In this document: positions 14,080 to 18,763 of the stretch, piece after piece
Numbering within the stretch: the first letter of the stretch is position 1
Layout: each line of letters begins with the position of its first letter
From: Candidatus Thorarchaeota archaeon
GTDB lineage: Archaea > Asgardarchaeota > Heimdallarchaeia > Hodarchaeales > Hodarchaeaceae
Direction of reading: 5' to 3'
DNA length: 32,000 bases
Assembly (NCBI GenBank): GCA_048882505.1
Contig: JBHLRO010000009.1
Coordinates: 91,894-123,893 of the forward strand
Translations under genes and position numbers: made by a program
Notes under the pieces: model-generated
Told to the model about the DNA's origin: nothing
The model's database searches: none
What the model saw: only the letters and a program-made list of their open reading frames with translations

Positions 14080-15090
14080 CTAAGCTTCGACCCTCTGCAT
14101 TCGTTTTAGTTCCCCTTTCTCCAGTTCAACAAGGAAACCTTTGAGGATAGCTTCAGTATACTCACTTCCGGGGTTTAAACAATAAGTTCGACCAATCTTG
14201 ACACTGCCAGGGGATTCGTGGATGTGTCCATGGAGTCCCAGAAGTGGCTGGTACTTTTCAATTGCCTTTCTTACAGCTTTACTACCTACGGGGCCGCGAA
14301 CCGGTTCCCCTCCACTATATCCCGCATAGGTAAGATCGGGATTCAATAACGGAGCCTCATCGATTTTACTTTCAAAAGGTGGAGCATGAAAGCAAAAAAC
14401 CGCATTTTCCAGATTTCGGATAAGGGGAACGAGTTCTTCGATCTTGGCCTCAATTTCATCATCATTTGTCTCTCTGTAGGTGTGCCAAGGTGTTGGATTG
14501 GTCCAACCATAGGATATCATTTCATGGTGATCATCCAAATCTACCTTTGCCCCCTCTCCAAAGATAACACGGGGATCTTTATTAAGAATTTCATCAATCG
14601 CAAACTTATCGTCATTTCCTGGACATATGATAATCTGGGTACCATTGGGAACCCGTTTTGATCCATCTTTCATGGTATCGTCAATCATATCTATCCAGAG
14701 TTGAAGGGAACTTGCTTCAACCTTGTCAAATAATTTGTCTAGGGCCCCACCTTTTATCATCTTGCCCTCTTCTGTTACAGAATCAAGCGATGAGAGTTGA
14801 CGATCTTCCTCGGGAGTCAATCGATAAGTATAACAGCCAGCCATTCGTGCACGGAATTCGAAGTCCTTAATGTCTTTTTCAGTTCGCATTATTACTTCTT
14901 GTTCCGCCACTCCATAGATAGAACCCTTCCATGTCCCATCGGATTGTTCTATTATTGGGACTATCCTTTTTCCTGTTATATCGCCACCCATGATTAGAGT
15001 GTCTACCTTCAAATACTTAGCCGAGTTAAGAAATTTCCTCCATACGGCTTCGGATCCATGTATATCAGTGCAATAGAAGAATCTGACCAA
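14080..15090 (-). CDS. Calcineurin-like metallophosphoesterase (Icc-related, uncharacterised subfamily)
   Basis: TDIHGS, GGDITGK, PGNDD, HAPP, GSKAV, LHGHIHES and NPGSEY motifs. TTG start with GGGTGA upstream. Confidence 0.93.
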   Translation of the reverse strand: MVRFFYCTDIHGSEAVWRKFLNSAKYLKVDTLIMGGDITGKRIVPIIEQSDGTWKGSIYGVAEQEVIMRTEKDIKDFEFRARMAGCYTYRLTPEEDRQLSSLDSVTEEGKMIKGGALDKLFDKVEASSLQLWIDMIDDTMKDGSKRVPNGTQIIICPGNDDKFAIDEILNKDPRVIFGEGAKVDLDDHHEMISYGWTNPTPWHTYRETNDDEIEAKIEELVPLIRNLENAVFCFHAPPFESKIDEAPLLNPDLTYAGYSGGEPVRGPVGSKAVRKAIEKYQPLLGLHGHIHESPGSVKIGRTYCLNPGSEYTEAILKGFLVELEKGELKRMQRVEA

Positions 15091-15531
15091 GCTAATTTCA
15101 CCCTATATTGCTATTTCTTCGCTTTTTTTAAAATAACTTAGCATATATCAATCGGCGTTCTATTTACCACAAATCCATAAATTGAATTATTTATTTTTCG
15201 AAAGATTCCCAGATTTCTATAACAGATTACTGAATTGGAGGTAAAAAGCGTTAAGAATCTTGATTTAGGAGGAAGTATGGTTTTCGCTTGGTTTTAATTA
15301 ATGTATATGAAGAACAGTGTAAAGTATTACTGAGGATCTTAAGTTAGATTTCCTAGTTAAGGAGTAATGCACGATGCTCTACCCCCTGTAAATTAAAAAA
15401 ACGGCCTATCGGTTCTGAAACCTTACGTTTCGCAGCAACGGAGGAGTTTCTAATTCAAATATAAATAGAGATTTCGGTCGAAAACCTTTTAATATTTCTA
15501 TATTATACAATTTTTATACCATTACTTTAGG

Positions 15532-15549
15532 AATAGAGATGCCTCTATT
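15532..15549. promoter_or_regulatory. Palindrome AATAGAG-ATGC-CTCTATT, a possible operator upstream of the permease promoter
   Basis: Perfect 7-bp arms. The AATAGAGAT half-site also occurs at 15464-15472. Confidence 0.35.
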
Positions 15550-15585
15550 TTACACGGTGGCATTATGGGAAGGAGTGCAGTCCAA

Positions 15586-15600
15586 CGAAAAATATATAAA
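15586..15600 (+). promoter_or_regulatory. Archaeal promoter (BRE CGAAAAA plus TATA box TATATAAA) for the APC permease
   Basis: Near-consensus BRE-TATA. It predicts a TSS at about 15619-15622 and a ~165-nt leader. Confidence 0.65.
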
Positions 15601-15626
15601 ACCTCCAGTATGAAACCAATGGCTGT

Positions 15627-15779
15627 ACAGCTGTCGATTTGTATTCTACAATTTATCGTACAAGTCGGCCTGTGTTAGGTAATCTATTCGAAAATCACCA
15701 ATGATGGGCAATCTATCCCTGTAAATACTTAGACATATAGGACAACTCCCCTAGCGATCATTGGTTGATTCGAAGGTGA
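15627..15779 (+). ncRNA. Candidate structured 5' leader (riboswitch/attenuator-like) of the APC permease
   Basis: Hairpin 15627-15673 (4+11 bp with two G-U pairs). A multibranch element is closed by 15687-15705 pairing with 15757-15774 and ends at the GGTGA RBS (15775-15779). Pairings were found by eye. Confidence 0.45.
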
Positions 15780-15786
15780 AATAAAC

Positions 15787-17541
15787 GTGTCTGAATCAAA
15801 AACCTACGTCCGAGACGCAACAGGTCTCGTACGAGAAATCGGGGTAGTCACCGCAACTATTTTCATTCTTTCGAATGTTATAGGTGGCGGATGGCAGAAA
15901 CGAGTCTTTCAAACTACCGGATGGGCTCCGCTACACCCCAGTAAAATTCTCTTGGTAGATCCACTTGTGGTCGCCTTCCTCCTGACAGGGATTGCCGCGA
16001 TAGCAACCGTTTTCGTATTTGCCGTCATGGCAACCGCGATGCCACGAGCAGGTGGCGGATACGTCTACATTTCCCGTACGATCAGCCCAGGGGTCGGCTT
16101 TGTTTCCGCCTGGGCTGAATTTCTAGGGATCGCGATTAGTTATGGTTTAATCGCAGTAGCCGTGGTTGAGTTCGCAGTACTATTCCTACCTGTGGCGGGG
16201 TATGATGTCGGATTCCTTGGATCTTCGCTCATGTTAACCGTCCTGGGAATAGTCTTTGTATTCCTGTTTGCAGGTCTTGCTTTCTTCGGGGCCTCCATGA
16301 CAGGCAAGCTATTGCATCTGATGTTCTGGATTCCTGCAGTAATTACCGTAGCCATCTATGGCTCACTACTTCTAGGTGTTCTTAACCCAGCTGCAATGGA
16401 GACTGGTATCCAAAGTATCACAGGTTCGTCGGCCGACGCTTGGATTGCAGATGCCGTCGCGTCGGGAATCGATTCACAAGCAGCTCCGGACTATTTTTCA
16501 GCAGTGAACACAGCGATTTTAGGAGCCTATTGGTCATGGATTGGATATGCTGCTATCTCGTTCGCCGCAGGCGAAGTTAAAGAGGCAAATAGGTCTCTGC
16601 CTATCTCTCATCTCGCTGCCGGGTTCATTATCCTCGGCGTCTATATGTCGATTAGCACTTTGCTTTCTATGGCAGCCTCTGTCGGAACACATTCAAGTGG
16701 TTGGACGTTCTTCCAAGCTTTGGGTTTCAACAACTACGGTACAACTACCTCTGACCCCGCTAATACTGGGTATGGATGGATGCCGTTTGTAGCTGTAATG
16801 GCAGCGGATGGCCTTGGATTTGGGTTCTTGGCTATTTTCTTTGCTGTCGCTGCTGTCTTGTGGCTAGCCAACGATCTTCCTCCATTCGTAACAACTTCTT
16901 CCAGAATTCTCTTTGCCATGTCCTTCGACCGAGCTCTCCCTGAAGCCTTCGCTAAGGTAGACGAACGCTGGCACTCTCCTACCAACGCCATATTGGTGAC
17001 CGCCATTATTGCAATCCTTGGGTGCTTTGCTGAAGCCGGTACCTTCACAGTGGGCGGTGTAATACACATCCCTGTTCTCGCTGAAGCTCTAGGCAGTGGA
17101 ATTACTGCAACCGATCTTCTCGACGGTATATTCTTCACTATGGCCTGTATTGCTGCCATTCTTCTCCCAAGACGGTTAAAGGATGTCTATGAGAGAACTG
17201 CATGGCGTCCGAAGATTGCTGGTATGGAAGGCGTCGTTTTAATAGGTATTATCGCGCTAGTTGCGAATATCTATCTGGATCTCGTTATCCTTGGAGAATT
17301 TGGCATTTTAACACCCATGGCTGGTCTAGAAGCTATTCCATTGCTTGGAGCTATGCCCATTGTGCCTGATCCCAATGCTTTGATACCTAGCGGCGATATT
17401 ATAGCTTCGCTGAATTGGGGTTTCTACACCATCTTGGTACTCGTTATAATAGGGGCCATTCTGTACTTCTATTATCGCTCGTACTATTCGAGAAAAGGTG
17501 TGGACTTCACAACCATCTACGCTTCGATCCCTCCAGAGTAG
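15787..17541 (+). CDS. APC-family amino acid/polyamine permease
   Basis: YVRDATGLVRE N-terminus, AMPRAGGGYVYISR, AGEVK, SRILFAMSFDRALP...FAKVDERWHSP, about 12-14 TM helices, C-terminal YASIPPE. GTG start with AGGTGA RBS. Confidence 0.95.
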   Translation: MSESKTYVRDATGLVREIGVVTATIFILSNVIGGGWQKRVFQTTGWAPLHPSKILLVDPLVVAFLLTGIAAIATVFVFAVMATAMPRAGGGYVYISRTISPGVGFVSAWAEFLGIAISYGLIAVAVVEFAVLFLPVAGYDVGFLGSSLMLTVLGIVFVFLFAGLAFFGASMTGKLLHLMFWIPAVITVAIYGSLLLGVLNPAAMETGIQSITGSSADAWIADAVASGIDSQAAPDYFSAVNTAILGAYWSWIGYAAISFAAGEVKEANRSLPISHLAAGFIILGVYMSISTLLSMAASVGTHSSGWTFFQALGFNNYGTTTSDPANTGYGWMPFVAVMAADGLGFGFLAIFFAVAAVLWLANDLPPFVTTSSRILFAMSFDRALPEAFAKVDERWHSPTNAILVTAIIAILGCFAEAGTFTVGGVIHIPVLAEALGSGITATDLLDGIFFTMACIAAILLPRRLKDVYERTAWRPKIAGMEGVVLIGIIALVANIYLDLVILGEFGILTPMAGLEAIPLLGAMPIVPDPNALIPSGDIIASLNWGFYTILVLVIIGAILYFYYRSYYSRKGVDFTTIYASIPPE

Positions 17542-17566: not shown

Positions 17567-17585
17567 TTTTTTTTTTCTTTTTTTT
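17567..17585 (+). terminator. Oligo-T tract (T10-C-T8), probable archaeal terminator after the permease
   Basis: Begins 26 nt after the stop codon; U-rich tracts are typical archaeal terminators. Confidence 0.6.
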
Positions 17586-17652: not shown

Positions 17653-18276
17653 GTGACAACTCTAACTGAACCAATCGACGAGAATTATCTTCGGATGGTT
17701 GAAGAAGAGCTAATGATCCGAGGTGGAAGATGGATAGCAAGTTTCGATACTGCATTTCGTAAATTTCTTGTTTCTAATGCCCTCAAAAACGTAGATACAG
17801 ATAAAACTCACAATAAGTCCGAATATGCGACAATGGTTTACGGGGGGGTTAGGAGCGGAGGTTTATTACTTTCCAGGGCTTTTGCTTTTATGGCCAGTCC
17901 AACCTATAAAGTTGGATTAGGGGCAATATTTTTGCCTGATCCGACGAGGGCCAAATGGTCGACAATCGTCCAGTATCTTCGTGAGTCTGGTTTCGTAAAA
18001 GATGTGATGGAATTCGAGTGGATGTGGATTCTGTTGTTTGGCCACGGAAAGCTCCCTCCCAAGGCGGCTGATAACCTTCAGCGCCATACCTCTAGGGAGC
18101 TGGGACTCCTTTATGCGGATTTAAAACATAAAACAATTATTAATTCGGACGCATTTATTTCTCGTAGAGGCGCAAAGCTATTTAATCCTGCAAATCTTGA
18201 TAAAAAGCCGTACCGATCAAAATTTACGGCAAAAAGAGCTGAAGAAGTTGACTCCAGAAAAGGATACTCCTCTTAA
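17653..18276 (+). CDS. Hypothetical soluble alpha/beta protein (207 aa)
   Basis: Long ORF with GAGG upstream of GTG and normal composition. No motif confidently recognised. Confidence 0.75.
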   Translation: MTTLTEPIDENYLRMVEEELMIRGGRWIASFDTAFRKFLVSNALKNVDTDKTHNKSEYATMVYGGVRSGGLLLSRAFAFMASPTYKVGLGAIFLPDPTRAKWSTIVQYLRESGFVKDVMEFEWMWILLFGHGKLPPKAADNLQRHTSRELGLLYADLKHKTIINSDAFISRRGAKLFNPANLDKKPYRSKFTAKRAEEVDSRKGYSS

Positions 18277-18763
18277 ACCTAGTGAAGAATTTTCACCGAA
18301 TATTCTTCAAACAAGGGCACTGTGGAATTTTCTCTGGATCTTTCTGACCATCCTTGCCGTGGAAACTTTAGGATTTGTATTAATTCGAGTAAACATCGCC
18401 GCCTGGCAAGGAATTATAGTAATCGATCTTGGAGCGGTTTTTTTCTTGATTCTTGGGGCATTAACCCTGGGATACCTATATTACACAAGATACGTAAAAC
18501 GTGTGATAATTTTCGGTGATAAGAGATTTAGCATAAGTGTAGGTAAAAATCTCTATCAATATGAGTGGAAGAATTTTAGAATGGTTGCATTAGCTATCGC
18601 TAGGGGTACAGCAGGCGTGAAAGGTTTCCTAATTCGCATTTATCAAGGCGACCTTGAGTCAGAGTATGTAGACCTTCCGATTTATAGGTTTTCAAAAAAA
18701 ATCAATGCCTTTGACCTAAGGAGCCAGATTGACGAAAAGATTAGTTCGGTTGGAGGTAAGTAA
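18197..18763 (+). CDS. Hypothetical membrane protein: two TM helices plus a beta-rich (PH-like?) domain; likely start TTG at 18248
   Basis: Two hydrophobic helices followed by VIIFGDKRFSISVG...YEWKNF...FLIRI, a layout seen in bacterial-PH-domain proteins. Confidence 0.7.
   Translation: MIKSRTDQNLRQKELKKLTPEKDTPLKPSEEFSPNILQTRALWNFLWIFLTILAVETLGFVLIRVNIAAWQGIIVIDLGAVFFLILGALTLGYLYYTRYVKRVIIFGDKRFSISVGKNLYQYEWKNFRMVALAIARGTAGVKGFLIRIYQGDLESEYVDLPIYRFSKKINAFDLRSQIDEKISSVGGK

Follow-up and report, generated by a model that had tools for sequence, protein, structure and literature searches.

The thiM TPP and ribB FMN riboswitches of E. coli are translational riboswitches whose expression platforms sequester the Shine-Dalgarno (SD) sequence. 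Transporter genes are typical riboswitch targets, and a metabolite aptamer would retain a sequence core. Other leaders act through simple hairpins. Ribosomal-protein operators and the hairpin in the 5′ UTR of the RNase E gene rne (cited in PMC2777011) are gene-specific, with a conserved base and a covarying upper stem. The same article cites Emory, Bouvet and Belasco (1992) for the stabilisation of E. coli ompA mRNA by 5′-terminal stem-loops. In Sulfolobus, 5′-3′ exonucleolytic decay by aCPSF2 has been documented (PMC3792030). Full-text literature searches returned no paper on riboswitches, leaders or mapped transcription starts in Asgard archaea. To our knowledge, stabilisation by 5′ hairpins has not been shown in archaea, very few archaeal cis-regulatory RNAs are known, and post-transcriptional control in Asgard archaea is almost unknown.

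The leader of an APC-superfamily permease gene in an Asgard archaeon resembles each of these systems in part. Like that of ompA, it is a long leader on a membrane-protein mRNA with a stable hairpin a few nucleotides from the (predicted) 5′ end, and as in ompA-type stabilisers it is structure, not sequence, that is conserved. It differs from ompA in its archaeal host, where β-CASP nucleases of the aCPSF2/aRNase J type would replace RNase E, in having a 5′ end that is predicted, and in the nearly invariant hairpin base of most orthologous leaders, which suggests more than passive protection. With thiM and ribB it shares a long structured leader, a transporter gene and a possible anti-SD pentamer. 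Unlike them, it has no conserved core or junction and no Rfam match, its sequestered fold is disfavoured, and it occurs in a single gene context. Gene specificity, a conserved base and a covarying upper stem are traits that it has in common with the protein-binding leader hairpins. However, its gene encodes a permease and not an RNA-binding protein, which makes autoregulation unlikely, and a binder is only hypothetical. Tentatively, we see in it one clade's version of a structured permease leader that is specific to this gene and has not been described before, and whose conserved 5′ hairpin would act on mRNA fate; we give this reading somewhat less than an even chance.

Locus, promoter and predicted transcript ends

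The window, the whole stretch of 32,000 nucleotides that was analysed, lies on contig 9 of a genome of 4.3 Mb and 94.5% completeness from the Hodarchaeales (Heimdallarchaeia, Asgard archaea). All coordinates below refer to the window, and features are on the plus strand unless stated otherwise. The leader is part of a 696-nt intergenic region between the permease gene and a divergent metallophosphoesterase-like gene (14080-15090, minus strand). The permease coding sequence (15787-17541) specifies 584 amino acids that match the Pfam families AA_permease_2 and AA_permease; NCBIfam gave generic amino-acid transporter matches only, far below cut-off. Its start codon is GTG in the window, ATG in most orthologues and TTG in the orthologue at locus L110. 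Two oligo-T tracts, T10 and T8, are read in the sequence 26 nt past the permease stop (17567-17585). Oligo-T has a known role in archaeal transcription termination. The tracts are thus the likely terminator, and the permease mRNA is probably monocistronic. Two conserved genes downstream of the permease gave no family matches.

The comparison rests on 22 distinct orthologous leaders drawn from genome and metagenome contigs of the Hodarchaeales. The closest relative of the window leader is L003, from genome G016; most of the other leaders form what we call the main type. A strong BRE/TATA with a long leader had been claimed in the initial annotation, in which every quoted string proved to be correctly placed. 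The permease GTG at 15787 follows this element (P1, CGAAAAATATATAA, 15586-15599) at a distance of 188-201 nt, which leaves a leader of about 160 nt. In 21 of the 22 orthologous loci the motif CGAAAnnTTTATAA precedes the start codon by 159-237 nt, so the long leader is a conserved trait of the permease gene. A TTTGTGC-like box, TTGTAC in the window, follows about 22-25 nt past the end of the TATA element in all leaders. By the general TATA-to-start distance of archaeal promoters, the box falls where a start is expected, and the predicted start region at 15621-15627, placed by that distance, is aligned with it.

A second BRE/TATA-like element, P2, lies further upstream (15475-15497) and is identical to L003 at 21 of 23 nt, while the DNA flanking it is only about 55-60% identical between the two. 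P2, which lies outside the feature first described, is a possible tandem promoter. Across the host genome, TATA-like words before SD-supported starts show a broad enrichment from -130 to -40, a signal too crude to rank this leader as exceptional. Upstream reading frames were also considered as a cause of leader conservation and were ruled out, since none of the short ORFs is conserved across the leaders and none is preceded by an SD.

The hairpin at the predicted 5′ end

Hairpin H1 occupies 15627-15673, with a 5′ arm at 15627-15644, a loop at 15645-15657 and a 3′ arm at 15658-15673. Its core of 11 base pairs includes two G-U pairs and is extended by four to five outer pairs. Its first nucleotide is no more than about 6 nt away from the predicted transcript start to which the TATA distance and the conserved box point. 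The hairpin was among the features first noted at this locus and is robust: it folds at -16.7 kcal/mol with a z-score of -3.91, and none of 200 dinucleotide shuffles was as stable. When the two strands of the window are compared, H1 folds at -18.8 kcal/mol on the plus strand and at -7.6 kcal/mol on the minus strand, and the G-U pairs form on the plus strand only. For the family as a whole, the preference for the plus strand is a trend only (12 of 22 leaders; Wilcoxon p 0.07). Contigs from DNA runs supplied a single near-identical variant, from a sediment metagenome. Of 185 positions, 9 differ between it and the window, and the variant positions listed for it, four of the nine, all fall in the 13-nt H1 loop. 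A K-turn in H1 was considered and rejected: the internal loop, read by eye, has no tandem G-A pairs.

A hairpin directly follows the conserved box, at the same offset, in all 22 orthologous leaders. The mean z-score is -2.9, and it lies below -2 in 18 of the 22. The stems that occupy this position have at least five different sequences; the stem of the window and L003 is distinct from the others, and at least three further lineages carry stems of their own. The distance between the two half-sites of the hairpin also varies, from about 13 to 25 nt. In the main type the stem base, AATGCTTAC/GTAAGCATT, is nearly invariant, and the upper stem is variable and covarying. Main-type leaders carry a second hairpin, H2, an A-tract:T-tract helix with an outer stem that covaries in some of them, and a small hairpin before the SD.

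The proposed pairs of H1 and H2 were tested for covariation with 14 main-type leaders in a plain MAFFT alignment. These pairs are filled in 78.5% of the alignment cells, against at most 57% when the partners are slid. Changes on both sides occur at 12 pairs, compared with 7.3 +/- 1.7 in shuffles (reached in 2 of 500), and the covariation score is 0.221 compared with 0.162 in shuffles (reached in 0 of 500). Covariation supports nothing beyond two simple main-type hairpins, H1 and H2. The small pre-SD hairpin, H3, is visible in several main-type leaders and shows one G-C/A-U exchange; in the alignment it is 70% paired, a level equalled by 27 of 500 shuffles, which is not significant, and it was rejected as a conserved helix.

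On this comparative evidence, H1 is a selected RNA structure at the extreme 5′ end of the predicted mRNA and the sole element that is kept as structure throughout the genus. The features kept genus-wide are the long leader, the 5′-end hairpin and the invariant SD context. The earlier view of a long, structured leader that looks transcribed holds, with the promoter position and the 5′-proximal hairpin kept in about 20 orthologous loci and with covariation.

The long stem and the Shine-Dalgarno region

Downstream of H1, a long stem joins a 5′ arm at 15687-15705 to a 3′ arm at 15757-15774. It consists of 17 Watson-Crick pairs with two bulges and is present, as first described, in both the minimum free energy (MFE) and the centroid structure. 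Since all of its pairs are Watson-Crick, it carries no strand information. When the 113-nt segment is dinucleotide-shuffled, 2.1% of the shuffles yield a perfect core of 9 base pairs like that of the stem (P ~0.02). The window and L003 leaders are 64% identical. The stretches best kept between them are the H1 stem, the linker TGTGTTAGG (15671-15679, identical at 9 of 9 nt), both arms of the long stem and the pre-SD/SD box. The GATTnnAAGGTGA segment of the 3′ arm aligns with a nearly invariant pre-SD box found in all orthologues.

The long stem is common to the window and L003 only, with one compensatory change between them, from G-C to A-U. Similarity at the level of BLAST reaches no further than L003; in other relatives it is confined to the part from about 15770 onward, which begins shortly ahead of the SD. 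Almost no leader sequence, and no core, is common to the window type and the main type; leader sequence turns over fast within the genus. A long-range helix enclosing H2 was considered as a homologue of the long stem in the main type and rejected, as its duplex energies are no better than those of shuffles. Because the long stem is confined to the window and L003 and has no main-type equivalent, we read it, with modest confidence, as a young, clade-specific helix.

The interior of the long stem (15706-15756) had been described as a four-way junction. It is poorly defined and has little identity to L003. The proposed GGG/CCC, TGT/ACA and TAGG/CCTA hairpins are absent from the MFE and centroid structures, so the junction has no defined fold. 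Most of the 50-nt sequence that separates the arms differs in L003, for which other inner hairpins are predicted. Speculatively, the linker TGTGTTAGG might pair with CCTAGC (15750-15755) in the window and with TCCTAAC in L003, at differing positions of the interior. The description of the leader as almost fully pairable was overstated, given a mean unpaired probability of 0.39. Comparison with shuffles, which the initial annotation had proposed as a check along with covariation in homologues, bears out H1 but not the leader as a whole (z -1.29) or its distal domain. The distal domain has a z-score of -1.30, or about -2.0 with our own shuffler on a slightly different segment, which is borderline; it folds better on the minus strand (z -2.4 to -2.9). 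Covariation likewise extends to H1 and to one pair change in the long stem but not to the junction interior.

The SD, GGTGA (15775-15779), is invariant in all leaders. On average it is unpaired with a probability of 0.55 in the window; across the family the values run from 0.03 to 0.69 without a consistent pattern. The 5′ arm of the long stem contains TCACC (15695-15699), the complement of the SD, which had suggested an anti-SD switch. In the favoured fold, however, TCACC pairs with an SD look-alike, GGTTGA (15763-15768), in the 3′ arm. Forcing TCACC onto GGTGA gives -37.5 kcal/mol, compared with -42.2 kcal/mol for the best fold, a cost of 4.7 kcal/mol, and the TCACC:GGTGA pairs make up less than 2% of the ensemble. 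Among the 22 leaders the full pentamer occurs in the window and L003 only, and anti-SD-like 4-mers are neither above chance nor fixed in position. The complement is thus present as described, but the sequestering fold is disfavoured and lacks wider conservation. An anti-SD switch is geometrically possible and is unsupported by thermodynamics or comparison. An SD paired by a conserved anti-SD, the mark of an SD-sequestering switch or RNA thermometer, was not found among these leaders.

Family searches and possible roles of the leader

A search of the window and eight orthologous loci with Rfam 15 (4227 families) gave no match at gathering score, in line with the earlier impression that no known riboswitch class is recognisable. 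With E up to 10, only chance-level matches appeared, to SNORD125 (E 9.5) and Ms_AS-5 (E 9.4), each scoring well short of its gathering threshold. A C/D box sRNA was rejected on the grounds that the SNORD125 match is at chance level (15.1 bits, where 56 is the gathering score) and that the leader has no CUGA at the required position. By BLAST, the window leader matches itself only. A covariance model of the main type, R1, was run on 22 genomes and matches permease leaders only, with one copy per genome, always before this permease. It finds nothing in 100 loci that include distant permease homologues, and it fails to detect the window and L003 leaders. The leader is also missing from distant permease homologues of Bathyarchaeia and Chloroflexota. 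G000 and G016 each have one copy of the window-type H1 pattern, and a loose palindrome pattern search for extra copies gave matches at control frequency. As a single copy in its own genome and in relatives, the leader is neither a mobile repeat, which rules out a MITE or REP-like element, nor a regulon-wide motif. Two generic marks of riboswitches, a conserved aptamer core and recurrence before linked genes, were both absent.

Since H1 keeps its structure while its sequence turns over, we take the leader for a structural element of the mRNA and not for a metabolite aptamer. We propose that transcription starts about 23 nt past the BRE/TATA, near 15621-15627, and that the first 50 nt of the RNA would fold into H1. 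H1 would then influence, in cis, what becomes of the mRNA, shielding it from decay that depends on the 5′ end, offering a handle to a trans-acting factor, or both. The host genome encodes three β-CASP proteins, among them one of 472 aa, that are candidate 5′-3′ exonucleases or endonucleases; together with the precedent of 5′-3′ decay in Sulfolobus, they make protection of the 5′ end a reasonable mechanism for H1. Sequence-specific recognition is hinted at by the nearly invariant base of main-type H1, which a passive stabiliser would not need, and a partner that recognises the sequence, probably a protein, may play a part too. In the window, the distal 17-bp helix would tie the pre-SD box to an upstream segment and hold TCACC on the GGTTGA decoy, leaving the true SD about half open. 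The long stem may in this way tune translation; a switching role is without support.

Protein recognition could also be the main function. H1, perhaps with the long stem, would then bind a specific protein, and translation or decay of the permease mRNA would follow substrate supply. An invariant base with a covarying upper stem is typical of protein-recognised hairpins, and this is the pattern of main-type H1, in an element specific to one gene. The H1 sequence of the window differs, however, and would require a co-evolving protein. No candidate binder was found either, as the two downstream genes have no family matches and lie beyond the likely oligo-T terminator. We consider such an RNA-protein switch rather unlikely. 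It is unlikely, too, that H1 alone is functional and that the long stem and the remainder up to the SD form a neutral spacer, paired by chance and kept by the ancestry shared with L003. The weak z-score of the distal domain, its unconserved interior and the fast turnover of leaders are as expected of a spacer, and one compensatory change says little for a helix when the two leaders compared are closely related. On the other hand, both arms of the long stem are among the best-kept stretches between the window and L003, and the perfect 9-bp core is seldom matched in shuffles.

The initial annotation had proposed a new translational riboswitch, in which the junction binds a metabolite and the opening of the stem frees TCACC to block the SD. 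Its attractions are that two partners are open to TCACC, GGTTGA in the stem and the true SD GGTGA 12 nt beyond it, that both stem arms and TCACC are kept in L003 with one compensatory change, and that the leader precedes a transporter gene. Nevertheless, the junction interior and inner helices differ in L003, there is no aptamer core in common with the other 20 orthologous leaders, and the pentamer is confined to two leaders, with shorter anti-SD 4-mers at chance. The energy cost of the SD-sequestered fold, the weak distal domain, the restriction to one gene family and the empty Rfam search even at E 10 all point the same way, and we regard a ligand-sensing riboswitch as improbable. A broader version, in which the leaders found a new cis-regulatory RNA family that responds to a ligand or a protein in the nearest archaeal kin of eukaryotes, and the platform in the window is a three-way competition between TCACC, the decoy GGTTGA and the true SD, also seems quite doubtful. 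Finally, the inverted repeats could be operators that act as DNA, bound by a transcription factor immediately downstream of the start site, with the RNA hairpins as a by-product. The arms of H1 do make up a conserved palindrome near the promoter, and the wholly Watson-Crick long stem is strand-symmetric. Yet half-site spacing that varies from about 13 to 25 nt, with compensatory changes between the half-sites, fits a hairpin and not a dimeric operator. The G-U pairs of window H1 become A-C mismatches on the opposite strand, and between the window and main types the hairpin persists but its sequence does not. A role at the level of DNA is therefore highly improbable.

As a gene-specific structured leader and not a new sensor, the element is of moderate importance, and its interest derives mainly from its Asgard host. 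With a defined promoter, a covarying 5′ hairpin and a strong SD, the leader offers a compact test object for the stability of mRNA and the initiation of translation in Asgard archaea. Genome and metagenome scans for further window-type leaders gained only main-type or other types. The next-closest orthologue on record is P0003, with 82% identity.

Reverse-strand folding and oligo-T runs in the leaders

The distal domain of the leader, which surrounds the 17-bp long stem (15687-15705 with 15757-15774) upstream of the SD sequence, is predicted to fold more stably as the reverse strand than as the mRNA strand, and the same is found in L003, the orthologous locus of the closest relative. On the minus strand of window positions 15680-15790, the predicted hairpin is longer and nearly continuous (-29.1 kcal/mol, z of -2.4 to -2.9). 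Neither an antisense promoter nor an ORF was identified for the minus strand of this interval.

In the main-type leaders, which are those of most orthologues, hairpin H2 (columns 86-109 of their alignment) is formed between an A-tract and a run of T6-T9, as in L010, L011, L007, L009, L106 and others. An oligo-T run of this kind, lying within a 5' leader, could function as an attenuator, terminating archaeal transcription prematurely. The window-type leader, present in the window and L003, is devoid of an H2-like T-run.

Upstream and pre-start sequences

A second BRE/TATA-like element, GGTCGAAAACCTTTTAATATTTC (15475-15497), precedes the permease promoter by 108 nt. Of its 23 positions, 21 are identical in L003, as opposed to only ~55-60% identity in its surroundings; the element may serve as a tandem promoter or drive a small transcript. 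Between the two promoters is an ORF of 24 codons (15539-15613), whose same-frame similarity in L003 is only weak. In one relative, a tandem direct repeat of ~75 nt (L206:560-720, contig JBHLQX010000114.1) lies ~350 nt 5' of the permease gene.

The permease starts with GTG in the window (15787), in contrast to ATG in most other orthologues examined and TTG in the orthologous locus L110. Within the conserved context of the ATG start, ATAAATGAGTGAA, each of the three frames has a stop codon at the start codon or adjoining it. In the source metagenome, reads at window position 15792 represent one more relative, which has yet another pre-start sequence. In the 30 nt visible, ACCAA pairs with TTGGT, overlapping the SD sequence GGTGA; this pairing would be a short SD-occluding hairpin.

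The 3' end of the permease gene

Directly 3' of the permease stop codon, two long oligo-T tracts (T10 and T8) preceded by a C-run occupy 17567-17585 and probably constitute a strong archaeal terminator. Two conserved genes of unknown family follow (17653-18276 and ~18290-18763) and are found alongside the permease in every orthologous contig; the putative terminator would part the permease from both.
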